From: a virus
Taxonomy: Duplodnaviria; Heunggongvirae; Uroviricota; Caudoviricetes
Length of the DNA stretch: 64,000 nt
Virus record (IMG/VR): IMGVR_UViG_3300032070_000001
Coordinates: 12,183-76,182 of that record
Direction: 5' to 3' (one strand)
Part shown: in pieces, positions 10,577 to 62,580 of the stretch
How positions within the stretch are numbered: the first letter of the stretch is position 1
Layout of the letters: each line of letters starts with the position of its first letter
The notes under the pieces: model-generated
The model's input: the letters and a program-made list of their open reading frames with translations, nothing else
What the model was told of the DNA's origin: nothing
Database searches by the model: none
Position numbers and translations under genes: made by a program

Positions 10577-10613
10577 TCTACCTGTACGTCGGACACGGCG
10601 CACGAATTCCGAG
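10577..10613 (-). promoter_or_regulatory. motif B copy 1: CTCGGAATT-N8-GTGTCCGACGTAC-N4-TAGAG, ECF-sigma-like promoter candidate upstream of ligase
   Basis: Minus-strand reading is ctcggaattcgtgcgccgtgtccgacgtacaggtagag. GGAAT-N17-CGTAC matches ECF -35/-10 geometry. The same motif recurs at 23896-23933 and 62541-62580. Confidence 0.4.
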
Positions 10614-10641
10614 TTCCGCTGACCATTTTCTTCAAATAAAC

Positions 10642-11460
10642 CTAAAAGAGTCCGTGTTCCACGGCCCGCAGCTTGCGTTGAAGACGTGCATACAGGTTAT
10701 GGGCCAGCATGTACATCGAGGTCACTGGCCAGTGAATCGCTTCTGCAATCTCTGTGTACGTGTACCGAGCTTCGCGCATCGCCATAAAGACACGCTCCTC
10801 GGGACACGCGATACAAGAGGCAATCAGATCGCGCACCTCCAATTCCTTCTCATACGCCGGTGTCTCAAAACGCTCGGGGATGTCGTTATACACCACTGGT
10901 GCGTTTATACTCTGGCCTTGGGCACGCGCACGGTATTTCGATGTGCGCGGCAAATGAATCGGAGTTTCGATTTCAATCAACTCACTCAACTCACGATTGA
11001 TCCACATACCGATGAAACCAGTAACACTCGTTTCATCTGTCTTTCGCGGCCTTGGCCCACTCTCAAGTTTCTTGACAGCGTTAACGAGACCAATGCAGCC
11101 GGCACTAACAAGATCGTCGCGTAGATACGCAACCCCCTGAAAGCAACGGATGAACGCCTCTACTTTTGAGAGAACAAAAGGCATGTTGCCAAGAATGATC
11201 TCTTCCCGCGCTGCTATGTCGCCGGCCTTGATGCGCTCATAAAGTACCGCATTCTTGGCCGCATCTAAGGACTGGCCCCTAGTCGCGCCACGCAAAGTTG
11301 TAATCAACACATCGTTGTACGAACTACTCACGGATGCCGGCCTCCATCGGGTCAATGCGCCAAGCACAGCGGGTATAAAAGCGATGAGCTTCACAAGCAA
11401 GGCGCGAATAGTCGTAGACAGGCCCATCAGGATCGAAGATGTGGCCGTGGTCGTAGGCAA
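10642..11460 (-). CDS. sigma-70-family (ECF-like, regions 2+4) RNA polymerase sigma factor
   Basis: Region 2-like VLYERIKAGDIAAREEIILGNMPFVLSKV and region 4 HTH FMAMREARYTYTEIAEAIHWPVTSMYMLAHNLYARLQ. The start is uncertain: ATG 11460, 11427, or GTG near 11310. Confidence 0.7.
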   Translation of the reverse strand: MPTTTATSSILMGLSTTIRALLVKLIAFIPAVLGALTRWRPASVSSSYNDVLITTLRGATRGQSLDAAKNAVLYERIKAGDIAAREEIILGNMPFVLSKVEAFIRCFQGVAYLRDDLVSAGCIGLVNAVKKLESGPRPRKTDETSVTGFIGMWINRELSELIEIETPIHLPRTSKYRARAQGQSINAPVVYNDIPERFETPAYEKELEVRDLIASCIACPEERVFMAMREARYTYTEIAEAIHWPVTSMYMLAHNLYARLQRKLRAVEHGLF

Positions 11461-11824
11461 CTGAATGACCGCAGCGGAAGCCCGCGCCGTCGATCACGCC
11501 CCGGCTATGTGCAATCGTGTTAGTGAACCGTCGCCAGTTACCCTCGCGGTACGCCACCGTATGCCTCAGCATCGAGTCCTCTGTCGGTTGCATGACCGGA
11601 CAAAGTTCGATGGGCGTGACCGCGAAACTTCGCGCTACAGCTATGTCGATTAGTTCCTGGATGTGGAATCCACGCCGGCAGATCGGCTCATCGAGGCCAG
11701 GAAAGATGATCTTGCTACCATCGTGACCAACCGCCAAAAGCAACTCGGCCACTGGCATATCAAGAGCCATCGCAAAGGCCGTCGGTAAACACATCCAGCG
11801 TTGCGACTTGAGTTGAAGTTCCAT
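11324..11824 (-). CDS. papain-fold cysteine peptidase-like protein (C39-like)
   Basis: QRWMCLPTAFAMAL...GHSVAYDHGH shows a Q/C...H arrangement like C39 peptidase domains. Confidence 0.45.
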   Translation of the reverse strand: MELQLKSQRWMCLPTAFAMALDMPVAELLLAVGHDGSKIIFPGLDEPICRRGFHIQELIDIAVARSFAVTPIELCPVMQPTEDSMLRHTVAYREGNWRRFTNTIAHSRGVIDGAGFRCGHSVAYDHGHIFDPDGPVYDYSRLACEAHRFYTRCAWRIDPMEAGIRE

Positions 11825-11876
11825 AGGCGCAGAGTCTCCCCGCAGTCGGTGGTAGTAACGGATTCAAGAAGACGAG

Positions 11877-12272
11877 TTACCAGCCAGTCCGGTCCAATTC
11901 GTCGAGGAGGGCGTCGATGTCAGGAACCTGACCCCACGACTCCTTCCAGTAATTCTTCCAATTGGGCGGCCCGAACAACTTGTCATACTCTTCTTGCGTA
12001 GCCGCCGTGAGTATCCAGATGCCAGTGCCCTTGGCCGCCCACTGCGGCCACTTGCGCCGCTGGGCTTTGGTGAACGAATAGTGCTTCGGCTGCTTTACGT
12101 CGATCCAGCGCTCGCCCCACTTCTCGTGCATCGCCAACAGATCAGGGAATCCGTTCTGGTACAAGGAACCATGTGTGTGCTCTACGAGCCAGCCCCGAGC
12201 CTGAAGAAAAGCAATCAAGTCCTTCTGGGTATGCCACTCCGGCCCGTGGCGCGGTCGTCGAATATCACCCAT
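11877..12272 (-). CDS. VRR-NUC domain nuclease
   Basis: GFPDLLAMHEKWGERWIDVKQP carries the D...E.K core. 131 aa. Confidence 0.7.
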   Translation of the reverse strand: MGDIRRPRHGPEWHTQKDLIAFLQARGWLVEHTHGSLYQNGFPDLLAMHEKWGERWIDVKQPKHYSFTKAQRRKWPQWAAKGTGIWILTAATQEEYDKLFGPPNWKNYWKESWGQVPDIDALLDELDRTGW

Positions 12273-12492
12273 GACGATGCACCCCCGTCAACCAACCCCA
12301 CGAATGACCGTGACAGATGCTTGACACTAATCCCCGAGGGACCTTTAATCGCTGGCCAATCGCAATACAACTGAACCCACGCTGCCAGAGGCGATGAATC
12401 GTCAAGACGGTCGCAGGTCGAAGGTAATTGTTGCCCGCCCGCACGCCGTCTCGCGGGTCAATGTAGACGTAGACGTAGTAGTCACATTTCAT
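12265..12492 (-). CDS. small HTH protein (homing-endonuclease NUMOD-like N-terminus)
   Basis: YYVYVYIDPRDG followed by an HTH-like segment HRLWQRGFSCIAIGQRLKVPRGLVSSI. ATGA overlap with the polymerase stop. Confidence 0.4.
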   Translation of the reverse strand: MKCDYYVYVYIDPRDGVRAGNNYLRPATVLTIHRLWQRGFSCIAIGQRLKVPRGLVSSICHGHSWGWLTGVHRHG

Positions 12493-15125: not shown

Positions 15126-15172
15126 GCCGTCATTGCGCCAGCCCCGTAACGATGCCAGAGACTACGATTGTG

Positions 15173-15976
15173 TCAACCATCAGGACTTTTTCGACTCGCA
15201 TTTCGAGTAGCGAGAATCTCTGCCAGCAACACATCATCCGAGATGTAGCCGGCACACCACGCACCCATCCGCGGGGCCAAACCCTCAATCCCAGCCGCCA
15301 GCATCCGTTCCACCATCCGATTGATCGCGTCTCGACGGCGAACGCCAGATCGCGGTTTGCACGCCTTATCAAGACCCGGTAGAAACTTTCCCTTGCCCCG
15401 TTGCCGCGCATTTCCGATTCGGATTGCCGCAAGAACCTGATCGGTTGCCGACTTCATGCCAGCCAGCACCTCCAAATTCACTTGGGAAAGCAAGCCGGCG
15501 GCAGCCCTCTGTTGCACCACTTCAGGCATCGCCAACAGTCGCAGGCGGATATGCACCCAGCGCGTCGGCCGCTTGAGTTCGGCTGCTGCCGCCCGAATCG
15601 TGGCACCATCCGGATAAAGCCGCCCGATAACACGAGCTTCTTCCATGATGTTCAGATTCTTGCGTTCCAGGTTCTCCATGAAGTTCAATACCTGGGCGTC
15701 CCGCTCTGAAAGCCCGACGCAGATATTAGCGGCAATCGTGGTCCACTTGAGGAAGTAAGTGGCCGCCCGAAAACGGCGATAGCCCACAATCAGCCGATAC
15801 TTGTAGCCATCACGATTCCACGGTTGTACTGTAACCGGTGAAATCAGACCTCCGACCTGCGAGATGCTATCTGCCAGGTCCTTGACGGATTGCAGCGTGA
15901 ATTGGCCGCGGCAGTTGAAGTCACTGTCATACAGGATGTCAGCCACCGGTAGCGCCGGATCAAAGGTCGTGTTCAT
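15173..15976 (-). CDS. ParB/sulfiredoxin-domain (ParB-like nuclease) protein
   Basis: YRLIVGYRRFRAA and ENLERKNL ParB N-domain motifs. Confidence 0.7.
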   Translation of the reverse strand: MNTTFDPALPVADILYDSDFNCRGQFTLQSVKDLADSISQVGGLISPVTVQPWNRDGYKYRLIVGYRRFRAATYFLKWTTIAANICVGLSERDAQVLNFMENLERKNLNIMEEARVIGRLYPDGATIRAAAAELKRPTRWVHIRLRLLAMPEVVQQRAAAGLLSQVNLEVLAGMKSATDQVLAAIRIGNARQRGKGKFLPGLDKACKPRSGVRRRDAINRMVERMLAAGIEGLAPRMGAWCAGYISDDVLLAEILATRNASRKSPDG

Positions 15977-17434: not shown

Positions 17435-17437
17435 AAG

Positions 17438-17520
17438 CTAGCAAGGCTGGACTCGAACCAGCGGCGGCTTTCGCACGAGATTAACAGTCCCGCCCCTGCT
17501 ACCAACTCGGGTACTTGCCA
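17438..17520 (-). tRNA. tRNA-Asn(GUU)-like gene with an atypical 13-nt variable region
   Basis: Minus-strand sequence TGGCAAG TA CCCG AGTTGGTAGC AGGG G CGGGA CTGTTAA TCTCG TGCGAAAGCCGCC GCTGG TTCGAGT CCAGC CTTGCTA G. It folds with a 7-bp acceptor stem, a D-loop with GG, an anticodon loop CUGUUAA and a T-loop TTCGAGT. No CCA is encoded. Confidence 0.6.
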
Positions 17521-17568: not shown

Positions 17569-17955
<387 letters not shown>

Positions 17956-18020
17956 GGGTCTCTCCGCAAAGGTTGAAAGTGAACAGCAACAACTGCCGCA
18001 AGTGGCAAACCAATCGGCTC

Positions 18021-18233
18021 CTACTGGACGTAACGATTCCAAACGTGATTCAAGGTCTCTGCGATGTCCCACACCGAGTAAATCAGCGTTTTCTCTCGGC
18101 CGTAAATGAAAAGCCGCGTATAGGTGACGGCCTTGAAAGCCGGTCGATTAAGCAACCGGATGGAGAACGGCTCGGCGGGTCTTGGCGGCATGTCATCCCG
18201 CACGTCAACATGCGGAAGATTTGCCGTTAACAC
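18021..18233 (-). CDS. hypothetical protein
   Basis: 70-aa ORF on the coding strand of this block. Confidence 0.4.
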   Translation of the reverse strand: MLTANLPHVDVRDDMPPRPAEPFSIRLLNRPAFKAVTYTRLFIYGREKTLIYSVWDIAETLNHVWNRYVQ

Positions 18234-19106: not shown

Positions 19107-20423
19107 CTAGTTCTTCAGCGGCCCCACGTCGCGCCCGCCGTCGATCAGATAGCGCTTGGGGCCGGACTTCTCGTTCTCGTGACGCAGTTTGCAGTTCAAC
19201 CGCCAGGTGATCCCATGCTTCGGATTGACACCGTGAAGCCACTGGGAAGGCTCGCGGTAGCCAGAAAGCGAGTTGTAGGCAAAGGCATCCGTTCCGACCC
19301 ACGAGCCGTTAATCAACAATTCACCATCCACATCTGCCAACGTGCTGGACGCATGATGATGGCCGACGCAGAAATAGCGGCACCGTTGGGCACCAGCCGC
19401 CGCCCCCAAGGCGATGAGCCCCTTCTGCCGGCGAACCATGCCATACCAAGGGATGCCCAAGCTACTCCGGCAATCGTCGCCGTGGGCGACATTGAAGCCG
19501 ACGCCATTGATGTTGACGTTGGCGCTCCACGCATCGGGGATGGAGAAATGGACGTTCTCTAACCCCCGACAATGCAATCGGGCCACCTCGCCAACAAGGT
19601 AGTCCCAATTGTCATTGGCCCCAAGGTAGTCCTTCTTTGGCGTCCGCCGACCGTGATTGCCGGCCAAGTAAAGGATGTTAACCTCCTCGAAATGGGCGGC
19701 CAAGTCGCGGTACATCAAGGCATGAAGCTGTCCAATAGCCAAACAGTTGCGAAACTGATTACGATAGTAGCTCCGCTCACACGCCCTATGAATTTCACCG
19801 CTGGTGTAATCCCCGTAGGCCAGAATCCAGAGAGTAGGAAAGTAGAACTTCGGGGCCAACGTGTCTTGTGTCCATTCGACCACGGTATTGACATACCGTT
19901 CGGCACGGGCGCAAGAAACCGGGAAGTTGTAGTCTTCCAGGCCACCGACCTCCTCGGGCCGCACGACCTGATCGTGGTGGCCGTCAGAAAGGTGCATGAC
20001 ACAGTGCTCGACGATCTGGGCCTTACGACGGTACTCAAAGGCCGGAGGCAGCGCTGCAAAAGGCTTGACTCGCTGATCCATTTCAGCCACAACCGCCCGA
20101 AAGAGGCCAGTGATCTTTGCACTCGCCTTGACCTTCTGCCGCTCCCGATTACGCTCCTCAGTCACATGAACGAGTTCGGCCTCCAGTGCCAAGACGCGCT
20201 CATCGGTCGGATCATAATCAGGAATGCTTTTGTGCTGACCGCCCGCCCGCTTCGGTGTCGGTGGTTCGTCGTTGGGCCACGGCACATCCTTATGAATACG
20301 CCCCGTAGTAATGTCCGACACAGTAGAGCGGCTGACCCGAAATCGCCTGGCGATCTCAGGCTGCTTGACACCCTCGGCAATGACCATTTTGATCTTTGCA
20401 ACGCGCTTCTTTGTCAGCTTCAT
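19107..20423 (-). CDS. N-terminal HTH + calcineurin-like metallophosphoesterase
   Basis: HTH KQPEIARRFRVSRSTVSDI, then phosphoesterase motifs HLSDGHHD, GNHG and CVGHHH. Confidence 0.7.
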   Translation of the reverse strand: MKLTKKRVAKIKMVIAEGVKQPEIARRFRVSRSTVSDITTGRIHKDVPWPNDEPPTPKRAGGQHKSIPDYDPTDERVLALEAELVHVTEERNRERQKVKASAKITGLFRAVVAEMDQRVKPFAALPPAFEYRRKAQIVEHCVMHLSDGHHDQVVRPEEVGGLEDYNFPVSCARAERYVNTVVEWTQDTLAPKFYFPTLWILAYGDYTSGEIHRACERSYYRNQFRNCLAIGQLHALMYRDLAAHFEEVNILYLAGNHGRRTPKKDYLGANDNWDYLVGEVARLHCRGLENVHFSIPDAWSANVNINGVGFNVAHGDDCRSSLGIPWYGMVRRQKGLIALGAAAGAQRCRYFCVGHHHASSTLADVDGELLINGSWVGTDAFAYNSLSGYREPSQWLHGVNPKHGITWRLNCKLRHENEKSGPKRYLIDGGRDVGPLKN

Positions 20424-21557: not shown

Positions 21558-21872
21558 TCACAAAACGTCACTCAAGTCCCCAAACGGGTCCGGTTGTTCA
21601 TACGCAATCGCAACCTCTACTTGGCTGTCATATTGCGGACACAGATAGTACAAAAGACGCTCATGAATCGCGTCCCGGATATACTCGCTATCGCCGCAAT
21701 ACGTCACAGTTACCTGGACGCACGAATCATCGTCCATCGAGTCACGACAATTCGTTGCCTCGACTTCCAAGGCACCTTGAATCGCATGTACCAAACTCGC
21801 AGGCAAAGATCGTCGGATGCGCGGCGACCACTTTCCCGCATACAGAAGAATGTCACACGTCACACGATTCAC
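21558..21872 (-). CDS. hypothetical protein
   Basis: 104 aa. ATGA overlap with the helicase stop. Confidence 0.45.
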   Translation of the reverse strand: MNRVTCDILLYAGKWSPRIRRSLPASLVHAIQGALEVEATNCRDSMDDDSCVQVTVTYCGDSEYIRDAIHERLLYYLCPQYDSQVEVAIAYEQPDPFGDLSDVL

Positions 21873-23881
21873 GGCACCGATTCCTCAATCTGTATTTCAC
21901 CCTCGCCGCCGGCATCCTTCCAATTGACACCTTCGAGAATTTCACCCATCGTCATTAGTTCCAGACGACGATTGGCCCGAAGAACGTCCAAGACACGTAG
22001 ATCACTCGGCAGGTGAAGCAAATCCACGATGGTACAACCAAGATTCTCATCCATGCCCTTCCGATGGATGCGGTCTTCCGATTGGCTGCGATACTCTGGC
22101 TTCCAAGAGTTGCTCCAATAGACTGCCATTCGGGCCGCCGTCAGGGACAGACTCATACCGCCAGACTCGGGATTAGACACGAACGCTACTCGCCCGTGAT
22201 CGGCCAAATTGTTCCAATAATCCAGAGGCTCTTCGTCAATGACGAGTTCACCGTCGTTCCCTTCACTACGGGCCGCAAAAACCTGATAGTTGCCGCCATC
22301 GCAGCGCACGACGTTCCATTTCTGCGTCAAACACAGCCTGACGATTCGGTCGATGGAACCCGTGAAGCCGGCCCAAACCACCAAGCGGCCAGTCTCCTCG
22401 TTCTCGTCCAGAAGCATCTTGAGTGCAGTATCCTTCGGACAAGGCACCTCGCGGGCAACACGCACTCGCTTGACGACTTCCCGCGTGCCCTGACACACCG
22501 GACAAGGTTGCGTATGTTTGGTCAATCGAGCAACTAGTTCCGGTTCTAACATCCCGATGGCTCCATAGCGGGCCGCCGGATCATCGGGATCGCGCCATTC
22601 CGCCACGGTCCCATCGGAACAGTGCGTACAGCGGGTCATGCCATCGGATACTTCATGATATTGGAAGCCGTCACTGAGTTCGCGCAACAGCGTCAGTCCC
22701 GTAATCGCATTGGGTGCAGCCGCGACAACAGCCTCAGCGACCCGCAACGCACTCGCGGATGGCCGGCAGATGATCCGCCGATATCGCTTATCCGGCAGGT
22801 TCAAGCAGTCTTTCTTGGGCTTAATGATGACCAATCCTTTGAGGCGTTTATACAGATAAGCAACCTCGTTCTTGCTCACCTCGTAGAGATGGTACATCTC
22901 AGGATCATCACACTCAGTCAGGGCGTGGGGCCCCGCATCCCGAGTCTGGCCACAGATGCCGCACTTGGCTTCATCATCCTTCCAGCCTGTGCGCGTCTTG
23001 TAGACCCCGCCGTCATAGGACCCCAGGACCATGAAAGCCAGCCGTTCTTCCATCGCCTTTGGACTGCCTTCCCGCAAGAAGCCTGGCCAGGCAATTTCAC
23101 ACTGGCTCCACCAATCCACAGGCCGCTTCGGAGCCGGTGTCCCCGACATCTCAATCACGTAGCCGCCCTCCAGTCCATACTTTTCGCGGATTAAATCGGC
23201 GAGCTTCTGGCAGGCTTTCGAGCGCTGCGACGTGCAGTTCTTGCAGCGACTTGATTCATCGATCACGAAAAGCCTGGGCAGCGATTGCGAACCATCCCAC
23301 TCGTCCATCACGCGAACCAGGCCCTCGTAAGTGAGCCAGACGACCTTGATCCGGTCGAAGGGGAATCCCCACATGCGGAACTCGCGCTGCATGTTCGGAA
23401 GGCTCGTCTTAGGACCAACCCACCACACCAGATCGACGCCCGAGTTCTCAATCACCATCTGGGCGGAAAGGGTCTTTCCCGTCCCCATCTCAGCGGCGAA
23501 AATATGATAGTGATACGTCAGCCCGCCGTCCGCCATGTCGAACTGATGGGGCATCGGGTCCGTCTGCACACCGTTGAGGTAATACGTTCGGTACTCGTGA
23601 TGAACCACCGGCCGATCGAACCACGCATAAACCTTCTCGCCGCAAAGAAACGCAAGCTGGAAACGATTACGCTGGCAGTCATCAACCGACCAGATTTTCT
23701 CGGGGTTCTCTTCCTCGTAGCCATGCCAACGCGATCCCTGCATAGCCTTGATCTCATCCTTGAGGGCGAAGGGGGATTTGAGAAAACGGATGCGCCCATC
23801 CCGATATTCCAGCGTCGAGGGCACACGAATCAGTGTGCCGCTGGACGTGCGAACGGTCATCTTTACTTGTTCGACAGTCAT
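21869..23881 (-). CDS. SNF2/DEAD-like helicase
   Basis: Walker A AAEMGTGKT and DExx-like box FVIDESS. Inserted Cys clusters (CGICGQ, CTHCSDG, CPVCQG). C-terminal helicase domain. Confidence 0.8.
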   Translation of the reverse strand: MTVEQVKMTVRTSSGTLIRVPSTLEYRDGRIRFLKSPFALKDEIKAMQGSRWHGYEEENPEKIWSVDDCQRNRFQLAFLCGEKVYAWFDRPVVHHEYRTYYLNGVQTDPMPHQFDMADGGLTYHYHIFAAEMGTGKTLSAQMVIENSGVDLVWWVGPKTSLPNMQREFRMWGFPFDRIKVVWLTYEGLVRVMDEWDGSQSLPRLFVIDESSRCKNCTSQRSKACQKLADLIREKYGLEGGYVIEMSGTPAPKRPVDWWSQCEIAWPGFLREGSPKAMEERLAFMVLGSYDGGVYKTRTGWKDDEAKCGICGQTRDAGPHALTECDDPEMYHLYEVSKNEVAYLYKRLKGLVIIKPKKDCLNLPDKRYRRIICRPSASALRVAEAVVAAAPNAITGLTLLRELSDGFQYHEVSDGMTRCTHCSDGTVAEWRDPDDPAARYGAIGMLEPELVARLTKHTQPCPVCQGTREVVKRVRVAREVPCPKDTALKMLLDENEETGRLVVWAGFTGSIDRIVRLCLTQKWNVVRCDGGNYQVFAARSEGNDGELVIDEEPLDYWNNLADHGRVAFVSNPESGGMSLSLTAARMAVYWSNSWKPEYRSQSEDRIHRKGMDENLGCTIVDLLHLPSDLRVLDVLRANRRLELMTMGEILEGVNWKDAGGEGEIQIEESVP

Positions 23882-23895: not shown

Positions 23896-23933
23896 TCTAA
23901 CCTGTACGTCGGACACAATCCTCAAATTCCGAG
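23896..23933 (-). promoter_or_regulatory. motif B copy 2 upstream of the helicase, overlapping the MTase 3' end
   Basis: Minus-strand reading is ctcggaatttgaggattgtgtccgacgtacaggttagag, then 15 nt to the helicase ATG. Confidence 0.4.
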
Positions 23934-26756: not shown

Positions 26757-27740
<984 letters not shown>

Positions 27741-27742
27741 AA

Positions 27743-27823
27743 CACCTATACAAGACTCCCAAAACTCGCGTTTTTTCCAAAATAGTCCGAAAAATCCCAG
27801 CTTTTGGGAGTCTTGTATAGGTG
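27743..27823. promoter_or_regulatory. 22-bp perfect inverted repeat (cacctatacaagactcccaaaa / RC) = two outward-facing copies of motif A in a divergent intergenic region
   Basis: Left arm 27743-27764, right arm 27802-27823, 37-bp spacer. Each arm is part of ctatacaagactcccaaaa-N6-(a/t)ttttt(c/g)(c/g)aa. A third copy is at 62478-62518. Confidence 0.5.
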
Positions 27824-49945: not shown

Positions 49946-50033
49946 CTAAGACACCCGCCTAGCTAATACGTGAAAGCTTCAAAGCACCCGAGTCGCGCAA
50001 GAAAGGCTTAAGTAAGCGCCACGCGGCAGAACT
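49946..50033. repeat. ~88-bp direct repeat, copy A (intergenic); copy B at 50779-50866
   Basis: gcctagctaatacgtgaaagcttcaaagcacccgagtcgcgcaagaaaggcttaagtaagcgccacgcggcagaactcgacacc versus ccgctagctcatacgtgaaagtttcaaaacatccgagtcgcgcaagaaaggcttgagcaagcgccacgcgacagaactcggcacc, about 90% identical. Confidence 0.8.
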
Positions 50034-50060
50034 CGACACCTTAATATATTTGATACTCAC

Positions 50061-50768
50061 CTACACTTGAGCAGCACCAATAAGTGCTGGATAAATGGCG
50101 TCGTTATGCTCAGCAAGTGCAATTTCCAGCGCAATAGCCTTGATTGTCTCCGCACTGAAACGTCGCTCACTGACAGATGCGCCCTGAACCAATGCCGAAG
50201 GGACAACACCTTCCGCCGGCACCGTACCACGAAGGATGCCAAGGCGATCAACCAAAATCGCATACCCGAGCCGGTCGGCTTGACCCTCCGTTGTGACCGT
50301 GATCGCGCCTGCCGAACCGCCGCCCGTCAATTTGGCACCGTCGATCACCGTCAAAGCATGATTCGCTTCCTCGACCGATGCACCGTCGAACGTCAACGTA
50401 ACAGGAGTTGAGGTAAGAGGACCACCGGCAACAGAAATGTCACCGTTCGTCCAACCAACAACACCAGCCGACGTGGCAGCGACATCAATCGCAGTTTCAA
50501 TTGTTGCCGCATTGGCATTATACGCAATGTCGCCCGTCGTAAAGGTCTCGCCACTAACCAAAGTAACTGTTAGTGCAAAGGTACCGCCATCAACAGTTTC
50601 GACATAGATGGCGATTGACTGAACCTCATCGACAGCCTGCAAAGCGGCAGACAATTCAAAATCATGAACCGCCATGAGTTCACGATAGGCGCGCCGATCC
50701 AATGGATCAATCGGAGGCGTAGTATCAATTGTCACCGCCGCATTGAGAAAATCCGCAATAACACCCAT
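50061..50768 (-). CDS. Ig-like-module protein flanked by the 88-bp direct repeats
   Basis: Contains a diverged copy of the shared module (GGTFALTVTLVSGETFTTGDIAYNANAATIETAIDVA). Start taken at M27 so that copy B stays outside. The tabulated start is 50846. Confidence 0.45.
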   Translation of the reverse strand: MGVIADFLNAAVTIDTTPPIDPLDRRAYRELMAVHDFELSAALQAVDEVQSIAIYVETVDGGTFALTVTLVSGETFTTGDIAYNANAATIETAIDVAATSAGVVGWTNGDISVAGGPLTSTPVTLTFDGASVEEANHALTVIDGAKLTGGGSAGAITVTTEGQADRLGYAILVDRLGILRGTVPAEGVVPSALVQGASVSERRFSAETIKAIALEIALAEHNDAIYPALIGAAQV

Positions 50769-50782
50769 TTCAGATATCTCCG

Positions 50783-51322
50783 CTAGCTCATACGTGAAAG
50801 TTTCAAAACATCCGAGTCGCGCAAGAAAGGCTTGAGCAAGCGCCACGCGACAGAACTCGGCACCATGTTGATGATGTGCTCGATAGGCAGTTGCGACCGC
50901 TCGTAGACCGTCTTCACCGCCCCGTACCCCATCGAACTGACGGCCAGATTCTCTAGTTCCAATTCCGGGTCCTTGCCGTCCAGTAGCGCGTAGGCGATCT
51001 CGTACTCCGCGATGCGAATCTCCGTAGGCACCTCAGTATCACTGCCCCTGGGAAACTCCAAGAGTTGATCCGCCTCGGCCACTCGAATCTGCTCTTGCGT
51101 AGCAGATGGGTTCGCCTGCAAGAGAAGATAGACGCTGTTCTTGTAGCCTTTGTAGTTCAGAGTGTCGATGATGGTGCGCGCGGCAACCAGTGCTTTACCA
51201 CGATCCGCTGCTGTAGCATTCGTCCACGCCGTCTCATGAAGTCGGGTGACAAAATACTCATCCGCCTCCTCCAGATCACCGTAAACATCATCGTAAAGTG
51301 TCATTGCGTCACCGTCACCCAA
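50783..51322 (-). CDS. hypothetical head-associated protein
   Basis: 179 aa. Its 3' end is part of repeat copy B. Confidence 0.45.
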   Translation of the reverse strand: MGDGDAMTLYDDVYGDLEEADEYFVTRLHETAWTNATAADRGKALVAARTIIDTLNYKGYKNSVYLLLQANPSATQEQIRVAEADQLLEFPRGSDTEVPTEIRIAEYEIAYALLDGKDPELELENLAVSSMGYGAVKTVYERSQLPIEHIINMVPSSVAWRLLKPFLRDSDVLKLSRMS

Positions 51323-51328: not shown

Positions 51329-52624
51329 TCAAAACTTGTTAAAATGCCGCGAGAGGGGGAAATCCTCAAACACATTCCACTGACCACGAATCCTTAAAAT
51401 CGGTGGATGATTGAATGGAATCCCGTATATCCGACCATTTGGCGCTAAGACACCCCCTGTCCACTTCTCTTCAGCACCGTAGCTCCCAATAGTCGTTACG
51501 GTATCTGACACAGGATCAATTACAAGAATTGATGTGTCACGATAGGGAATACCATAGATGCGTCCATCAGGAGCCAAAACCCCACCTGCCCACTTATTTG
51601 ATGCTGTTCCGACATCACCGAAAGTTGTCGCTGTATCTGTGGTGGGATCAATCTTTAAGACCGATGCACTACTGGCCGGGATACCATAGATGCAACCATT
51701 CGGAGCCAAAACCCCACCATGCCACTTGTATGTTGCCGTCCCAAGATCGCCAAAAAGCGTAGTTGTATCTGTGGCAGGATCAATCTTTAACACGTATGCC
51801 CGACGGTCTGGAATCCCATAGATACAACCATTTGGTGCTAGTACGCCGCCCTTCCACTTCGTTAGCGATGTGCCAAGACTTCCGAATGTTGAATACGTGT
51901 CATTCGTTGGATTGATCTTTAAGATAGTCGCAATGCCAGTTGGAATCCCGTAGATCATTCCATTTGGAGCTAAGACACAACCCCACCACTTACTTCCGGT
52001 AGCAAAACTTCCGAATGTTGATACCGTGTCATTTGCCGGATTGATCCTCAGTATTGTAGACCCACCAAATGGCACAGAATAAATCATACCATTCGGAGCT
52101 AAAACACCGCCCGCCCACGCAGTCCCCTGCGTAGAGACAACACCTCCAAACATGGTCGCAGTGTTGGTAGTAGGATCAATTTTCAATATCGTTGGAGCCG
52201 TCAGACATTGATATGGTATCCCGTAGATACAGCCATTTGGTGCTAAAACGCCTCCAATCCAATGCCGTAAGTTGGCGGTATCAGGATTTGCAACAGTATC
52301 ATGAGCCGCATCATTGGGCACCCATCGTTGCAAAATCGACAACGCTTGAATTATTGCCAATCCATTGTTGCTGTTCTGCTCCCACTCGGGAAAACGAGCA
52401 ACATCCAAGAGATCGGCAACTCGAAGTTGTTGCATACCGCTGCCAATACCGGTATAAATATAGGCATTGTATGCCAATCGCTCTGGCCAAGTCACTTGAC
52501 GTAGACGACCACTCTCTGAGATAATCGGTTTTCGGGCCGCCATGACTCCAACATCCAGAATATCAGCAGTCTTCAACTGTTGAAGTCTACTGTTCACCAA
52601 TACAATAGGATGACGAGTAGCCAT
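51329..52624 (-). CDS. seven-bladed beta-propeller repeat protein
   Basis: Seven ~45-aa repeats of W.GGVLAPNG.IYGIP....IL.I.P..DT..TFG. The N-terminus has duplicated LQQLKTADILDV/MQQLRVADLLDV. Confidence 0.65.
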   Translation of the reverse strand: MATRHPIVLVNSRLQQLKTADILDVGVMAARKPIISESGRLRQVTWPERLAYNAYIYTGIGSGMQQLRVADLLDVARFPEWEQNSNNGLAIIQALSILQRWVPNDAAHDTVANPDTANLRHWIGGVLAPNGCIYGIPYQCLTAPTILKIDPTTNTATMFGGVVSTQGTAWAGGVLAPNGMIYSVPFGGSTILRINPANDTVSTFGSFATGSKWWGCVLAPNGMIYGIPTGIATILKINPTNDTYSTFGSLGTSLTKWKGGVLAPNGCIYGIPDRRAYVLKIDPATDTTTLFGDLGTATYKWHGGVLAPNGCIYGIPASSASVLKIDPTTDTATTFGDVGTASNKWAGGVLAPDGRIYGIPYRDTSILVIDPVSDTVTTIGSYGAEEKWTGGVLAPNGRIYGIPFNHPPILRIRGQWNVFEDFPLSRHFNKF

Positions 52625-52636: not shown

Positions 52637-53620
52637 CTATATCTCAATTGGTGTCTGAATGTTAATGACTAATCGCGTGGTATCCATTGCTACACCAAGC
52701 GATGCCAGAATCTCTCCGACTTCTGTTGGCGGTGTTACTGTCAACTTTCCAGCCGTTGTTGACAAGTAGTAGCGAGCGCCTTCAGTCAAACCACCAGTTT
52801 CGTCAGTTACAGCGTCCCATTCGTCGGTAGTTGCAACCAAGACGCCTGCATTCTGAATAGCACCATCCAAGCCATCTGCAATGGAGGCGTCTTCAACAAA
52901 TCCGATAACATCGGCTGTCAAAACAGCACTTGCCTCAGCGAGTGCCACTTTTCCGTTTGCCTTTGCATAGACAGGTTGGCATCTATTGATCGCGCTACCT
53001 TGGTCATTTGTGGCAGTAAACAATACACCAGTACCAGTGGGGCCTGTTGCACCGACTTCACCTTGCGGCCCAACCTCGCCCTGGATGCCTTGCGGCCCAA
53101 CCTCGCCCTGGATGCCTTGCGGCCCAACCTCGCCCTGGATGCCTTGCGGCCCAACCTCGCCCTGGATGCCTTGCAGCCCGACTTCGCCTCGCGGCCCGAC
53201 TTCACCTTGCAGCCCGACTTCGCCTCGCGGCCCGACTTCACCTTGCGGCCCGACTTCACCTTGCGGCCCGACTTCACCTTGCGGCCCGACTTCACCTTGC
53301 GGCCCGACTTCACCCGGCAGACCAGCAACGCCTTGTGGCCCAATATCCCCTTTGCCGGCGTAGGACCCAGGTTTTCCTTGCAGACCAATGGGTCCACGGT
53401 CGCCTTTCGGACCTCGTTCACCGCATGGTCCCGATGGTCCCGGCGGTCCCGGCGGTCCTGGCGGTCCTACGCCCCCCCCATCAGGTCCTAGTAACCCTTG
53501 CAGTCCACGATCTCCTTTGGGTCCGCGATCTCCTTTCGGACCTCTTTCACCACGTGGCCCCGGCGGTCCAATTAAAGATGCCATATCAACACGCAATCCA
53601 GGAAAACTGACTGCCCGCAC
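52637..53620 (-). CDS. collagen-like (G-X-Y) fibre protein with globular C-terminal domain
   Basis: About 190 aa of GxY triplets ([13 protein letters not shown]...), encoded by 27-bp and 18-bp perfect tandem repeats. Start may be M13 (53584). Confidence 0.8.
53060..53325. repeat. perfect tandem repeats (27-bp x4, 18-bp x5) inside the collagen-like gene
   Basis: ccttgcggcccaacctcgccctggatg x4, then cttgcggcccgacttcac x5. Confidence 0.9.
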
Positions 53621-57981: not shown

Positions 57982-57987
57982 GGGGTC

Positions 57988-58160: not shown

Positions 58161-58378
58161 TGTCAATCGCCTCACGTATCGTTGGTTGCTTGTCGTCAAT
58201 CGGGTCAATGCACACGAATGGCCGCGATCTCAACTGTTCTGGACTCGGGCAGGTCCTTGATCTCAGTCCGCCGTGCCCGCTCCCGCCTTCGAGGCATTGT
58301 CGTCACCTTGGGTGCCGGCTCCAACTTCGGAGGATCAGGGCAATTCCGGCAACGTCGTCTCACCATCGAACAGTGCTC

Positions 58379-58750: not shown

Positions 58751-58864
58751 TTTATTCTCCGATTGTCGAATAGCTCACAAAGGCACTTGGGAGCCATTCG
58801 ACAATCGCCCCGGTCGCATATAACTGCAACCGGGACGATGGGTTGAAATGCTTGAGGCAGTTGC

Positions 58865-59278
58865 TTACAACTGCAGCACGGACGCAGAGGCAGCCTCGGG
58901 AACCGCCTGGGCCCCTTCAACCTCGACGATCTGAGCCTTGAGATAAGCCAGCCCTTCGGGGTTAGCCAACTTGGCCTTCAGCACACGCTCGTAGACCACG
59001 GCCAGTTCCTTCTCGATGGCATCACTGCCGGCCTCGACCAGCTTGGCGAGATCATGAATCTGCTCGAACATGGCTTGCAGATCGCCAAGAGCGACGGCTT
59101 CGAGGAAGTTGGGAATGCGCTGAAGGCCAGCGGCCCGCAGCTTGCCGGCGAGGACCTGAGCGGCCCGCTTCTTCTGTTGCAGCTTGGTGTTTTCACCGAA
59201 GAGCCATTTGCCGACTTCACGGCCGACCAATACGGCGAGGGCAACGGCCAGAATCCAAATCACGGTGGTGGGGTTCAT
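58865..59278 (-). CDS. membrane protein with N-terminal TM helix and coiled-coil
   Basis: MNPTTVIWILAVALAVLV... 137 aa. Confidence 0.5.
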   Translation of the reverse strand: MNPTTVIWILAVALAVLVGREVGKWLFGENTKLQQKKRAAQVLAGKLRAAGLQRIPNFLEAVALGDLQAMFEQIHDLAKLVEAGSDAIEKELAVVYERVLKAKLANPEGLAYLKAQIVEVEGAQAVPEAASASVLQL

Positions 59279-59360
59279 GTTACTACTCCAGATGCTTGTG
59301 GATGGCCGTCACGCGACAGCCGAAAGAGTCACACGACAAGAGACACGTAAGTACGTGCCG

Positions 59361-60056
59361 TTACTTCACGGCGGGATGCAGCTTCGCGTACAACTGGCGG
59401 CCGTAGCCGACCGAAAGACCACCCAGGAAACCGACCACACACAACATGGCCAGGACCCACGGTGGCAAAACACTTTCCGGCTGCGGCTGCGGCTGCGGCT
59501 CGACAATCGGAGCCTCGCCATCATCAATCGGCTGGGTATCAGGGTCCGGTTGCGGACCTGGGCTAGGTTGCGGGCAACGCCGCCACGGAATACAACGGAT
59601 ACCCTGAGCGCTATGCACGCCGCTGGCAATCGCGCCATACAGACCCTCGACCGTCATCGGAATGTTCTTCCCAGCCGCCTCGTAGACCACTTCACCGTTG
59701 GCCTTCTGCACTCGCACGGTCGGAAGGCCCTTGACATTCGAGGCGTACCGTTCCTGATACATGGGATGACCGGTCGTGACCGGGCAGAAGCGGACCTGGC
59801 TCTTGAGGGCCTTGAGGCTGGTATTGCTGTCGAACCACCCCAGCAGCCGAAGGTAGGCCGTATCGTTGGCGCTGCCCACGACGCTGATGTACCACTTGCC
59901 CTGGTCGTTCGGCAGATTGATGACACGCTCTTCGGCGAGCACGCCGTTGACCGTAGCGGTGTCCGCGAAACACGGAACCGCCGCAGCCAAGAGGCAGAGA
60001 GTCAAGAGACTCAGGAGACTCAGGAGACTCAGGAGACTCAGGAGGATGCGATTCAT
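59361..60056 (-). CDS. secreted protein with (LLS)n signal region and C-terminal TM anchor
   Basis: The N-terminal LLSLLSLLSLLSLLTLCLLAAAVP is encoded by a 9-bp tandem repeat gagactcag x4 (60003-60041). Pro-rich linker, then VLPPWVLAMLCVVGFLGGLSVGYG. Confidence 0.5.
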   Translation of the reverse strand: MNRILLSLLSLLSLLSLLTLCLLAAAVPCFADTATVNGVLAEERVINLPNDQGKWYISVVGSANDTAYLRLLGWFDSNTSLKALKSQVRFCPVTTGHPMYQERYASNVKGLPTVRVQKANGEVVYEAAGKNIPMTVEGLYGAIASGVHSAQGIRCIPWRRCPQPSPGPQPDPDTQPIDDGEAPIVEPQPQPQPESVLPPWVLAMLCVVGFLGGLSVGYGRQLYAKLHPAVK

Positions 60057-60098
60057 GGTTTTCCTCTCGAAGATAAGGGGTTGATGACTTGTTGCGAC

Positions 60099-60662
60099 TT
60101 ACTGCGGCAGGGGTGCGGCCGGCGTGTAGACCGGCGTGACCGCCCACCCGTAACTGGCCTTCCACTCGGCGATCAATGTTGCCCGAGGAACCCAAATGAA
60201 CTTGGAGACGTTGTTATTGTCGAGGATCGCGGCCCACTGGCTGTCCAAGTGGACCAGGGTGACCATGTGAGCGCCACCCATGATCGTGATCCCGCACCCG
60301 CGCCGGGTTCGACAGGCCCACTTCAGGAACCACACGTCCCCATTCGTGGTGTAGGCGTAACGGATGTTCGCCCGGTCGAGCTTGGCGGCCAGATCATCCG
60401 GCTCCTCGCCGTTGCCGTAGGTCCGCCGCCAGTAGTCCGCCGTCTTGTCTCGGCCCTGCCAGCGGAGGAGGCTAATCATCGTCGCGTGGACGCACGATCC
60501 TTGACGCTGATTGCCGACCCAGTTGCTCTGCCGCAGGGCGAGCGGTAGGTTGACGGTCGGCCGTTCGATCTTGATCGGATGGGTTCCAATCGTCGGAACA
60601 TCGCAGCCAGCCACCAACAAAACCAGTGCAACAAGAATTTGCTTCAAACCGAATTGAGACAT
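60099..60662 (-). CDS. lipoprotein with papain-fold (C39-like) peptidase domain
   Basis: Lipobox LLVAGC. QGSCVHATMISLLRW ... GGAHMVTLVHLD gives a Cys/His arrangement. Confidence 0.5.
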   Translation of the reverse strand: MSQFGLKQILVALVLLVAGCDVPTIGTHPIKIERPTVNLPLALRQSNWVGNQRQGSCVHATMISLLRWQGRDKTADYWRRTYGNGEEPDDLAAKLDRANIRYAYTTNGDVWFLKWACRTRRGCGITIMGGAHMVTLVHLDSQWAAILDNNNVSKFIWVPRATLIAEWKASYGWAVTPVYTPAAPLPQ

Positions 60663-61123
60663 GCAAATTCTCCAAAATGTTTCAATGCGGCCTCGTTATA
60701 GGCCCTTGCAGCATCACGCGAGTCGTCAAAAAGCCCTAAGTATCGCTGACGCCTGTGCAACCCGATATAGGCTCGCCACTTCCCGAGTTGTTTGTGCCAG
60801 GAAACACCCTTGAAACCCGATGCGCTATCCCTCCGCCGTCTCTGGTTTGCGGCATTCTGTCTATCAGTTGCCATCCGCAAGTTGCTTCGACAGTTATTAC
60901 ACGTATCGCGGTTGGCATGGTCAATCTTCAGATTTCCACACTTCAGGCCGCACCTTTCGGCGACGACACGGTGCATCCACACAATCTTGCGGACTTCACC
61001 TCGCTGACGCCGCGCGGCGTATTGCCCATCCACCGCAGCGTGCCACTTCCATTGCATCAGGTACTCGTAATCACAGTCGTCTACCAGTGCCTCCCTGCCT
61101 TTGGTCAACGGAATGGCTTTCAC
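60644..61123 (-). CDS. HNH-AP2 homing endonuclease (copy 3)
   Basis: GTG start (RC of 61121-61123) overlapping the upstream TAG, with GGAGG 9 nt upstream. VKAIPLTKG..., IDHANRDTCNNCRSNLR, SGFKGVSWHKQLGKWRAYIGLHRRQRYLGLFDDSRDAARAYNEAALKHFGEFA. Tabulated ORF 60644..61252 is N-extended. Confidence 0.75.
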   Translation of the reverse strand: MKAIPLTKGREALVDDCDYEYLMQWKWHAAVDGQYAARRQRGEVRKIVWMHRVVAERCGLKCGNLKIDHANRDTCNNCRSNLRMATDRQNAANQRRRRDSASGFKGVSWHKQLGKWRAYIGLHRRQRYLGLFDDSRDAARAYNEAALKHFGEFACLNSV

Positions 61124-61725
61124 TATTTCAACCTCCGAGGCTTTCGCAAGATTTTCTTGCGTCGTTCGACCCGCACCAAGCGATTCGGATTCCAACGGCT
61201 CACGTTGTCCGTCTGAAGAATACCGAGGGTTGCATGGGCGGCAGCACACCATTCCGAACAGAAGATCGAAGTAAGGTTATCAGGATGTAGCAGCGATTCG
61301 ATCCATGAAAGACCCACGCCAGCTACCCGAATCGCGCCCAACTTGTCGTAAGGAGTTCCAATCGTCCCCATCAAGAACTCGGTGAGGCGGCTGTCTTCGT
61401 CCGGGTACAAGGACCGGTAAAGCGGATAGTGCCAAACCTTGCCCTTGTAGATGTTGACGACGTGCTCCAGTTGATGGGCTTGGGTTCCCCAGAACACTTC
61501 ACCCGTGATCTCGCACGGCAGATCGTCGAGTTGCGTAGACTCGAATAGCATGAGGCGTCCGTCGTCCGCGTGCCCCATGATGCCAACGTGACCGATGCTC
61601 CAGAACGGAATGCCGTAGGTGGCGATATTAACCAGGGCACTGACCAAACAGTGACCCGAGAATCCGATGATGTCACCGGCCTTGAGTTCGTCGGGCAGGA
61701 ACGGGTTTTCCCGGTGACGGAACAT
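61123..61725 (-). CDS. permuted papain-fold (NlpC/P60-like) peptidase, candidate cell-wall hydrolase
   Basis: GDIIGFSGHCLV / GHVGIMGH (His region) precedes FCSEWCAAAH (Cys). 200 aa. Confidence 0.5.
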   Translation of the reverse strand: MFRHRENPFLPDELKAGDIIGFSGHCLVSALVNIATYGIPFWSIGHVGIMGHADDGRLMLFESTQLDDLPCEITGEVFWGTQAHQLEHVVNIYKGKVWHYPLYRSLYPDEDSRLTEFLMGTIGTPYDKLGAIRVAGVGLSWIESLLHPDNLTSIFCSEWCAAAHATLGILQTDNVSRWNPNRLVRVERRKKILRKPRRLK

Positions 61726-61876
61726 GACTGGCCTCCCGATCCGGCGTGGTCATCGTATGAATGGCTTGACTGCGGCCCGCCCGATACTTGAACTGATCGT
61801 CCGCCCAACAGTCCTCGCAGCGATCCTCACCGGGATAGGTGACCAGTTTGCCGCAAGCACACCAGACGAGTTTCAT
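61673..61876 (-). CDS. small Cys-rich zinc-ribbon protein
   Basis: MKLVWCACGKLVTYPGEDRCEDCW. Overlaps the peptidase start by about 50 nt, so one of the two starts is probably wrong. Confidence 0.35.
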   Translation of the reverse strand: MKLVWCACGKLVTYPGEDRCEDCWADDQFKYRAGRSQAIHTMTTPDREASHVPSPGKPVPARRTQGR

Positions 61877-61899
61877 GCCCTGTTGTTACCAGATGAGTT

Positions 61900-62460
61900 T
61901 CATACCCCGTTGTGACCTACCAGCGGGACTTCAGAGTTGTCGGCCTTGGAGATCGTCGCCACGATGTCGGTGATGATCCCATCGACGATCCGTTCGTAAT
62001 TCTGGATGCCCTCCAGTCGTTCGACGATGATCTGGCAGATTTGCTGGCCCACTCGAAGCACGGCGTTCCGCGCAAGCAACGCACCCAGACTCTTTTCAAT
62101 CGCGTGTGCTGATTTGACAAGACGCTCAACGGTCAAGAGCAGCGTGTTGAGCGAGCCGCAGGCCGAAATCAGGTCAGCGTCGTTCTGGATCAAGTTGAAG
62201 CGCCGCTCGATCAGCATCCGAGCCAGTGCGATCTCGTCCCGAAGCGACTTGACTTCCTCATGCTCGGCAAACTGGGCCAGCCGAGTGCTGTCCTGGGCCT
62301 TGGCAAGAAGGTACTGCCGGAGACGGCGTGCCGGGGCCTGGCTGATGCCACCGCACGCCCGGCAGTAGTCCACCCCGTCCTCCGCAACATTCTGGCACTG
62401 CCCATCGGGTTGAGAGCCTTTACAGCGGCGTGGGTCGGCTAGGTCCGTGACACGTTGCAT
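61900..62460 (-). CDS. hypothetical protein with Cys-rich N-terminus and coiled-coil
   Basis: ATG at 62458-62460 with an AGGTGAGGAG RBS. The tabulated start 62478 is a GTG inside the RBS. Confidence 0.5.
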   Translation of the reverse strand: MQRVTDLADPRRCKGSQPDGQCQNVAEDGVDYCRACGGISQAPARRLRQYLLAKAQDSTRLAQFAEHEEVKSLRDEIALARMLIERRFNLIQNDADLISACGSLNTLLLTVERLVKSAHAIEKSLGALLARNAVLRVGQQICQIIVERLEGIQNYERIVDGIITDIVATISKADNSEVPLVGHNGV

Positions 62461-62477
62461 TGCGCACTTGCTCCTCA

Positions 62478-62518
62478 CCTTATACTAGACTCCCAAAACG
62501 TCGATTTTTTCCAAATTT
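62478..62518 (-). promoter_or_regulatory. motif A copy 3, directly upstream of gene 61900..62460
   Basis: Minus-strand reading is tttggaaaaaatcgacgttttgggagtctagtataagg. Compare copy 1, ttttggaaaaaacgcgagttttgggagtcttgtatagg. Confidence 0.45.
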
Positions 62519-62540
62519 CTTCCATATTTACGACGCAACC

Positions 62541-62580
62541 CTCGGAATAGACTTCCCGTGTCCGACGTACCTTATAGTAA
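62541..62580 (+). promoter_or_regulatory. motif B copy 3 (plus orientation) upstream of gene 62717..63175
   Basis: ctcggaatagacttcccgtgtccgacgtaccttatagta, with GGAAT-N17-CGTAC spacing identical to copies 1 and 2. Confidence 0.4.

Follow-up and report, generated by a model that had tools for sequence, protein, structure and literature searches.

What reads a short bipartite element that recurs ahead of several genes of a tailed phage, and could the reader be the sigma factor encoded by the very same phage? This question is raised by the 64,000-nt stretch analyzed here (positions 12,183 to 76,182 of IMG/VR virus record IMGVR_UViG_3300032070_000001; the whole of this stretch is referred to as the window). 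An original prediction, made from the sequence alone, had described three copies of the element, each facing the next gene, and had seen in them, together with a sigma factor gene ending next to one of the copies, a self-contained transcription program with sites laid out like the promoters of extracytoplasmic function (ECF, group 4) sigma factors. The three copies are indeed there, and GGAAT and CGTAC are 17 nt apart in each of them; the N8 gap originally assigned to the motif had to be corrected, as an N8 pattern matches nothing and the gap between the two conserved blocks is 9 nt. The resulting CTCGGAAT-N9-GTGTCCGACGTAC sites, hereafter class A, are, to judge by their sequence and placement, very probably promoters, and the reading that we lean towards, with modest confidence, is that they would be promoters of a temperate Planctomycetota phage read by the host core RNA polymerase carrying the phage sigma factor encoded at 10642..11331. 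Five copies were located, three in the window and two beyond it:

10584..10613, minus strand: class A copy 1, CTCGGAAT-TCGTGCGCC-GTGTCCGACGTAC, 28 nt past the sigma stop codon (10642-10644), with 59 nt from the C of CGTAC to the ligase ATG at 10524
23904..23933, minus strand: class A copy 2, with 22 nt from the C of CGTAC to the ATG of an SNF2-type helicase at 23881
62541..62570, plus strand: class A copy 3, with 62 nt from the C of CGTAC to an ATG at 62633 (database gene call), diverging from the packaging/structural block
L088:64-93, outside the window on the same contig: class A copy 4, exact, 18 nt ahead of a 102-aa gene, the first in a series of small ones
L090:15887-15916, outside the window on the same contig: class A copy 5, with GGGAT for GGAAT, 39 nt ahead of a 72-aa gene

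The contig in question is the 102,004-bp ENA metagenome contig ERZ27247591 k141_1628225, to which the window is 99.7-99.9% identical (the window minus strand being the contig forward strand), with 100% identity over most overlaps with Logan contigs from SRR9651086; an extra ~19 kb of it was read via the flanks of genes near the window ends, so that ~83 kb were scanned in total and the count of at least five class A copies is a lower bound. The original prediction had asked for a scan beyond the window for an upstream-of-gene bias, and all five copies in these ~83 kb turned out to precede genes, each on the strand of the next gene and with a CGTAC-to-start gap of 18-62 nt (for copy 3 measured to ATG 62633, and not to the start at 62717 that had been assumed). 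Separate scans of IMG/VR viral contigs for the exact class A motif and for the sigma factor returned no match, and megablast found nothing similar to a 17-kb segment among 50,697 phage records.

The class A blocks span 8 nt and 13 nt, i.e., 21 positions in total, of which 20-21 are identical among the five copies. Searching the window with up to three mismatches allowed yields three matches, all of them perfect, against 0.00 expected (100 dinucleotide shuffles), and the next-best match to the whole pattern has at least 7/21 mismatches, which makes class A a sharply defined element. The GTGTCCGACGTAC-side block on its own shows no partial matches above chance, matching 18 times at up to three mismatches against 19.7 expected, with only the three perfect matches outstanding. 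Invariance in the five-copy alignment is confined to the two blocks, while the spacer and both flanks are unrelated, which argues for selection on two short words held at a fixed distance and not for a recent duplication of some longer segment. At copy 2, the upstream (-35) block even overlaps the final codons of a DNA methylase gene whose stop codon lies inside the motif spacer. The promoter-like character of the sites is thus supported by their bipartite build, free spacer, constant co-orientation with a near gene start, and the existence of equivalent lineage-specific motifs in relatives, which are described below.

The candidate reader is encoded right next to copy 1, at a distance agreeing with the ~30 nt given originally, although its likely start is further downstream than the 11460 proposed at that time:

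10642..11331, minus strand: phage sigma factor, 229 aa, starting with GTG at 11331 (database gene call), with an 8-nt overlap with the upstream gene

A terminator-like hairpin overlaps the stop codon of this gene just upstream of copy 1. The protein misses the Pfam thresholds (Sigma70_r2 only at E=0.022), but is matched by PHROG 351 ‘RNA polymerase sigma factor’ (E=5e-6) and by the NCBIfam models of SigG (6e-9), SigF/G (2e-8) and, at full length, TIGR02937 (2e-7), followed by SigK, RpoS and SigE. TIGR02937 is the sigma70-ECF model, and the alignment to it reaches model position 165/165, yet with a score of 30.9 bits against a cut-off of 42.9. Among PDB chains, SigF, SigA and RpoS align over regions 1.2-2.4, with DLVSAGCIGLVNAVKKL and GMWINRELSEL falling on regions 2.2-2.4, and the alignment continues into region 3.0 IRIPVHM, opposite which the phage protein keeps a region-3.0-like remnant, IETPIHLP. 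A profile of 36 family members searched against the PDB places SigF (1l0o) at the top (2.7e-9), then SigK (4e-7), SigA and RpoD; only group 1-3 sigmas appear at E≤0.01, and there are no ECF chains among the 50 matches at this threshold.

The AlphaFold2 model built on the alignment of these members (AF2; predicted local distance difference test, pLDDT, of 84) depicts sigma2 as a helical domain at residues ~3-122 and sigma4 as four helices at residues 159-225; the 37 linker residues between them form a single short helix at most, and there is no sigma3 domain. The top matches of this model in a Foldseek search against the PDB are all sigmas (sigma-32, SigH, sigma-S, SigA), with the ECF sigmas AlgU and sigma-E only at ranks 31 and 47. 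As to region 4, two of 36 family members match Pfam Sigma70_r4 and one matches r4_2, the others hitting generic helix-turn-helix families, and none of the 36 matches Pfam Sigma70_ECF. What was found is, therefore, a sigma2 domain with the region 2.1-2.4 motifs and a C-terminal sigma4 helix-turn-helix, as expected of the sigma-70 family, in an arrangement (sigma2 and sigma4 only, without sigma1.1 and sigma3) that is that of ECF sigmas, whereas its sequence stays below the ECF cut-off. The original two-domain (region 2 and region 4) description is borne out by profile matches, the AF2 model and Foldseek alike, and the ECF label holds for the architecture only: the protein is a two-domain sigma-70-family factor whose sequence is nearer to the sporulation-type SigF/G/K and to SigA, with RpoS also among its best matches. 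A search of six-frame translations of the ~83 kb with the family profile revealed no second sigma.

All 44 homologues of the sigma (46-61% identity) are metagenomic, and an exhaustive profile search among 1.84 billion representatives retrieved 88 clusters at E≤1e-30, a number that rises to 358 when the limit is E≤1e-10. A tblastn search against 50,697 deposited phage genomes gave only partial sigma2 matches, from gut-metagenome phages. Within GTDB genomes, 12 of the 13 sigma loci reside in metagenome-assembled genomes of Planctomycetota (Thermoguttaceae, Planctomycetaceae, Pirellulales), several of them on contigs of 0.38-1.07 Mb, which places the family among temperate phages of this phylum. 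The terminase is conserved at 63-89% identity among the relatives, much above the sigma, which is, by this sequence measure, a fast-evolving gene; the most variable parts of its alignment are the sigma4 recognition helix and one sigma2 loop.

For comparison, sigma homologues with ±10 kb around them were taken from 80 JGI loci and from 13 loci in genomes, and motif discovery in this set relied on a seed-and-extend approach (plain 12-mer repeat finding being too noisy). The orthologous intergenic site of L008 reads GTCGAAAA-N9-GTATGCAACGTAC, with the spacing of the window kept, and that of L094, a Thermoguttaceae prophage, reads TAAAA-N17-CGTAC; in the closest clade overall, the orthologous promoters show CGTAC, TGTCC, TTTAC or AGTCT at the same N17 position. 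More distant relatives have bipartite motifs of their own, several per 20-kb locus, on the gene strand and just 5' of a Shine-Dalgarno sequence and ATG, with one copy usually right behind the sigma gene. L051 is a good example, as its AAAACCAGCC…CGTCTCTCTTAGTGGAG motif (core AAACC-N16-CGTCTC) is present in four copies in 20 kb, 4/4 on the gene strand and one directly after the sigma gene. Other flavors are GAAAACCAG…GCAACTCT (L065 and L102), CTCGGGAA…CGTTGTCCC (L010), CTCTCGAAA…GCAATCTCTC (L027) and CACTCTAAC…(C)GTTGATGTG or TTGCTGAT (L043, L056, L077, L080, L084, L099 and L103; 12/12 on the sigma strand), and the forms CTCnGAAA… and CTCTAAC…CGTTGATG are seen in relatives as well. When the sigma proteins are grouped by average linkage, three of the flavors each have nearly all of their loci in a single cluster, only L103 falling in a neighboring one.

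The usual ECF promoter has AAC in its -35 element and CGT in its -10 element, with CGTA in the case of sigma-W (PMC5758882). Against this standard (AAC -35, CGT-type -10, spacer of 14-17), the -10 of the window motif fits, while the hallmark AAC is absent from its GGAAT -35, contrary to the ECF-type -35 that had been claimed; some relatives, e.g., L051, come nearer to the textbook ECF layout than the window does.

The phage also carries a second conserved element, class B, of the form GAAAAA-N7/8-TTTTGGGAGTCTTGTATAG(G)GTG, with three window copies against 0.01 expected:

62480..62511, minus strand: class B copy B1 (GAAAAAATCGACGTTTTGGGAGTCTAGTATAA), immediately ahead of the first packaging/structural gene (ATG 62460)
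27746..27777, minus strand: class B copy B2, facing a ParB-like gene (ATG 27740)
27789..27820, plus strand: class B copy B3, facing primase/helicase, dGTP-diphosphohydrolase-like and exonuclease genes

B2 and B3 stand back-to-back and form a 35-nt inverted repeat. The same divergent region was found in three relatives by terminase, namely L106 (large terminase, TerL, 85% identical), L110 (80%) and L111 (73%), where class B is located at L106:5228-5262, L110 ~6170-6205 and L111 ~4905-4945 and reads cTGaAAAAA-N5/6-TTTTGGsrGTCTwgTrTAgGGTGAGGAG, being partly degraded in L111. The element opposite class B varies: it is CTCGGAAT-N17-CGTAC in the window, ACTCGGGAT-N17-TGTCC in L106 and CTAACCAG-N13-GCAACTCTTAG, a second flavor, in L111. 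As class A thus varies with lineage, like the sigma, and class B stays constant, class A is the better candidate for the promoters of the phage sigma, and this contrast seems to be the best available argument for the pairing, without amounting to proof; class B would presumably be read by a conserved factor, i.e., the host holoenzyme or some conserved phage regulator. The cognate promoters of the original prediction therefore survive as the best reading, the flavor tracking the sigma clade and class B remaining constant, but the program does not look self-contained, with two promoter-like classes facing a single detectable sigma.

A number of points weigh against pairing the sigma with class A. 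The link is correlative, and shared descent alone would also make the flavor follow the sigma clade; within the closest sigma clade, no clean correlation ties the type of the sigma4 helix or sigma2 loop to the -35/-10 sequence. In the relatives, the -35 block of the sigma/ligase site shares sequence with the 3' end of a HAD-like gene, and coding constraint may account for part of its conservation there. The sigma-adjacent promoters of L009 and L028 carry a class-B-like -10, GGCAGTCTAT, and class B itself fits GAAA-N17-GTCT and heads the structural genes. The partial coverage of the contig and the restriction of the relatives to ±10 kb count on the same side. Finally, the classical logic, in which a phage sigma serves the late promoters and is itself expressed from host-read ones, would by analogy make class B the target of the phage sigma and leave class A to a host sigma. 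An exchange of roles along these lines, with class A as early promoters read by a host sigma (e.g., one of the numerous planctomycete ECF sigmas) and driving the small left-arm genes and the helicase-polymerase-sigma operon, and the phage sigma reading class B to switch on the structural (late), primase and ParB modules, is unlikely, even if it deserves the most attention among the alternatives. Besides the fit of class B and the L009/L028 promoters just mentioned, it would gain from the packaging/structural block being headed by class B and not class A, from the sigma sitting 3' of class A copy 2, so that it could be expressed without itself, and from the CGTA -10 of class A being the kind usually found with host ECF sigmas, sigma-W for one (PMC5758882). 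It fits poorly with a class B that is nearly constant where the sigmas, hypervariable in their sigma4 recognition helix, would be expected to differ strongly, and with a class A flavor that shifts in step with the sigma clade; the 20-21/21 identity of the five class A copies is likewise what one typically sees with a dedicated phage factor. An early program would also be poorly served by host ECF sigmas, which anti-sigmas normally keep inactive.

Could one sigma instead read both classes via a short core, GRAAW-N17/18-GT[A/C], with the extra class-specific bases setting strength or timing or binding regulators? The single sigma-like open reading frame (ORF), the geometry and GT core common to A and B, and the variation of the closest-clade promoters at their fixed N17 position would all suit such an arrangement, which we nevertheless consider improbable, given that the two classes share at most 2-3 bases of the -10 block while each is conserved over 13-19 nt, and that a variable A beside a constant B is hard to explain by one reader. 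More improbable still is that the sites are operators of a non-sigma activator or repressor, for instance a dimer bound to the inverted pentamers TCGGA…TCCGA, 17 nt apart: TCGGA (in CTCGGAAT) and TCCGA (in GTGTCCGACG) are indeed reverse complements and several ORFs contain a helix-turn-helix (e.g., the N-terminus of 19107..20423), but the blocks are asymmetric (8 vs 13 nt), the co-orientation with downstream genes is strict (5/5 here, 12/12 and 4/4 in relatives), and the length and position match a promoter footprint of -36 to -7. The palindromic version was rejected, as the pentamers are not conserved in L008 and L094, both of which keep the spacing and CGTAC. It is hardly credible that the sites act at the RNA level (as a leader, terminator or processing site) or serve recombination or packaging. 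A weak 5-bp stem is possible, and the hairpin at the sigma stop lies just 5' of copy 1, but folding is no better than that of shuffles (z from +1.7 to -1.3), Rfam matches nothing except one tRNA, the spacer is free and no compensatory changes were seen, so that the hairpin or RNA version was rejected too; five dispersed pre-gene copies, in turn, do not fit a pac, cos or att site.

Returning to class A sites as promoters of the phage sigma, we start from the observed motif statistics, positions, orientation and comparative pattern and the modeled sigma fold; the assignment of holoenzymes to the two classes, and where and when transcription would start, are inferred roughly as follows. Class B promoters would start the three main modules (structural, primase and ParB). 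Copy 2 heads a same-strand gene string running from the helicase via the DNA polymerase to the sigma, and transcription from B2 or copy 2 would reach the sigma at the end of this string. Once made, the sigma would bind the host core RNA polymerase, with sigma4 reading the upstream block as the -35 (..GGAAT, CTCGGAAT) and sigma2 the downstream one as an extended -10 (..CGTAC), and perhaps with the retained region-3.0-like linker helix contacting the conserved GTGTCCGA just upstream of CGTAC in an extended -10 manner; transcription might then begin ~6-8 nt past CGTAC, near a recurrent TAGAG found 3-6 nt past it. The nearest same-strand class A site 5' of the sigma is copy 2, 12.5 kb off (copy 1 lies just 3' of it), and, given its place at the end of the copy-2-headed string, the sigma would reinforce its own operon. 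It would also turn on the ligase/nucleotide-metabolism operon behind copy 1, the small divergent operon behind copy 3 and the two small-gene clusters outside the window. The genes directly 3' of the window copies are:

9382..10524, minus strand: ATP-dependent DNA ligase, the first gene 3' of copy 1
21869..23881, minus strand: SNF2-type DNA helicase, the first gene 3' of copy 2
62633..63175 and 63177..63380, plus strand: two small genes (180 aa and 67 aa) with no assigned function, the operon 3' of copy 3

As the targets are DNA-metabolism operons and small-gene clusters, class A seems to be middle rather than late: of the “middle or late promoters” predicted originally, a middle or DNA-metabolism class is probable, while the late option finds no support, since none of the three window copies stands ahead of structural genes and the structural block is headed by class B.

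The gene directly 5' of the sigma might add a further layer of control:

11324..11824, minus strand: papain-fold (C39-like) cysteine peptidase, 166 aa, overlapping the sigma start

It occupies this position in 64 of 67 relatives and is better conserved than the sigma. Searches of Pfam, PHROGs and PDB sequences with the peptidase gave no match, and its papain fold comes from an AF2 model (pLDDT 93) nearest to C39 peptidase domains (PCAT1, ComA) and staphopain, with Cys, His and Asp residues conserved. The peptidase might regulate the sigma, e.g., by processing or by removal of an inhibitor. No anti-sigma factor was recognised, the conserved upstream neighbor of the sigma being this C39-like fold. 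Processing of a pro-sigma by the peptidase would be conjecture; no double-glycine leader is seen at the sigma N-terminus. On the other side of the sigma, most relatives (L009-L037 were compared) have a HAD-like gene (RRIFLDLDDVCNTL…), then a small ‘MHTVEF’ gene and then the ligase, whereas positions 10614-10641 of the window are devoid of the HAD-like and ‘MHTVEF’ genes and retain a HAD 3'-end remnant, TATTTGAAGAAAAT, just upstream of copy 1; the window phage has, as this sequence indicates, lost its HAD-like gene.

How does this compare with the systems already described? The redirection of the host RNA polymerase by a phage sigma is a well-established principle, with SPO1 gp28/gp34 and T4 gp55 as the classical examples, of which gp55 and gp34 are far more reduced than the sigma discussed here and need co-activators. 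The window phage shares the hallmark of such systems, a phage-encoded sigma and a small set of near-identical promoter-like elements 5' of phage operons. Its closest characterised analogue, by analogy of design, is SaPh711_gp47 of phage 7-11, also a phage-encoded sigma with region 4 and with bipartite promoters upstream of operons. The closest cellular homologues of gp47 are sigma-24, and with the host core RNA polymerase it reads about eight GTAAtg-N16-aCTA late promoters per genome, with starts a few nt downstream (PMC8948821). There is, however, no detectable sequence relationship between the two sigmas, and 7-11 is a virulent enterobacterial podovirus using late promoters, whereas the present phage, known from sequence alone, is temperate, from Planctomycetota, and has its sites ahead of DNA-metabolism and small-gene operons, with a much longer -10 block (13 nt). 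The middle-gene sigma gp36 of phiEco32, which steers the host core RNA polymerase to a handful of highly conserved phage promoters, recognizes a single element, tAATGTAtA, and has no region 4 homology (PMC8948821); unlike gp36, the present sigma includes sigma4, and the motif paired with it here consists of two blocks.

Cellular ECF (group 4) systems are alike in the sigma2 and sigma4 architecture, near-consensus promoters and the CGT(A) -10 core, as in the TGAAAC-N16-CGTA promoter of Bacillus subtilis sigma-W (PMC5758882). The spacer of the window motif is as long as the longest ECF spacers or slightly longer (L051 shows AAC-N16-CGTC), and the present sigma is unlike them in being nearer to groups 3 and 1 in sequence and below the ECF cut-off, in its GGAAT -35 and in being phage-borne and encoded beside a C39-like peptidase; no counterpart of the anti-sigmas of ECF systems was identified. 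Sporulation-like (SigF/SigG-type) sigmas occur in phages of Bacillota and act on host sporulation genes (PMC9429907). These are, too, phage-borne members of the sigma-70 family, and SigG, SigF and SigK are the best matches of the present protein; yet they are full group-3 sigmas of spore-former phages, whereas the present one lacks sigma3, comes from a non-sporulating phylum and would serve phage promoters. The logic is hence shared with known phage sigmas, and novelty lies in the protein family, in the phylum of the host, in a -10 block of such length and in the presence of a second conserved element beside class A.

To our knowledge, there are almost no genetic parts for Planctomycetota, and their phages have been almost unstudied, with their transcription signals unknown; the pairing discussed above would, if confirmed, give these phages their first sigma factors with assigned promoters, define a sigma family that goes unrecognised by Pfam and offer several sigma/promoter flavors, apparently orthogonal to one another, as possible genetic parts. 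The combination of ECF-like architecture and promoter geometry with a group-3-like sequence in one sigma also bears on the origin of two-domain sigmas. On a more speculative note, planctomycete prophages might harbor fast-diversifying compact sigmas, each with a private bipartite promoter (at least three flavors, with different -35 words and sigma4 recognition helices), above a frozen promoter class and perhaps with the C39-like peptidase as a regulator; doubtful as this generalization is, it would, if true, mean a natural library of mutually orthogonal sigma/promoter pairs usable as genetic parts.

As for the remaining gene content, the phage is a siphovirus-like tailed one, with a GpA-type large terminase, portal, major head protein, tail proteins and a tape-measure protein, and its replication module comprises a DUF5906 primase/helicase, an RNase_T-type exonuclease, ParB-like proteins, a DNA methylase, the SNF2-type helicase, a family A DNA polymerase, the ATP-dependent ligase and an endonuclease VII; none of the proteins scanned looked like a phage RNA polymerase. 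Between 9 and 28.5 kb, sigma-70-type promoters are not enriched (5 against 8.3 expected), and intrinsic terminators are not above chance. Relatives have a strong lineage-specific promoter ~4.5 kb upstream of the sigma, ahead of a ‘PGID..LKP’ gene; when both were looked for in the window, the gene proved absent and only weak look-alikes were present before the polymerase gene. These lie at 15126-15260 on the minus strand, 5' of the DNA polymerase start and inside the end of a ParB_N gene, where the -35-word look-alikes ACTCGAAAT and GTCGAAAAA are followed by CGTAGTCTCTGG.

Several further features of the window deserve mention. A tRNA-Asn (GTT) is found within the replication module at 17437-17520 on the minus strand (ARAGORN and Rfam), and the ORF at 17569-18072 on the same strand is extremely acidic, its stretch of ~40 Asp and its LDDD repeats being encoded by (GAC)n; another (GAC)n tract is located at 26757-26823, at the end of a ParB-like gene. 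A collagen-like protein encoded at 52637-53620 (minus strand), probably a fibre, has long Gly-X-Y tracts with GPQGEV/GIQGEV repeats stemming from 18-/27-nt tandem repeats, as well as a globular C-terminus, and its gene sits in a stretch of lower GC content at third codon positions (GC3) at ~50-53.6 kb. The adjacent 431-aa ORF at 51329-52624 (minus strand; GC3 0.41) consists of ~7 repeats of 43-44 residues (GGVLAPNGxIYGIP…ILKIDP) from 129-132-nt DNA repeats; it has a propeller-like look, with no significant family match and one marginal PHROG match (function unknown). An 82-nt direct repeat, 90% identical, at 49959-50040 and 50783-50864 flanks a 261-aa ORF (50061..50846).

The endonuclease VII gene at 8336-8887 (minus strand) is a single ORF in the window and an intact call on the Logan contig (L007, L091), while the calls in the same region of the 99.7%-identical ENA contig (L006/L090) are broken into small ORFs, which is either a strain difference or an assembly error. 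Further along the same contig, beyond window position 1, there are a TnpB/IS605 OrfB (Cas12f-like) gene and a Ro60/TROVE and vWA gene (L090:17022-17894 and 19452-20414), and in one of the relatives (L108:7115-8731) TnpB is inserted between the portal and head genes.

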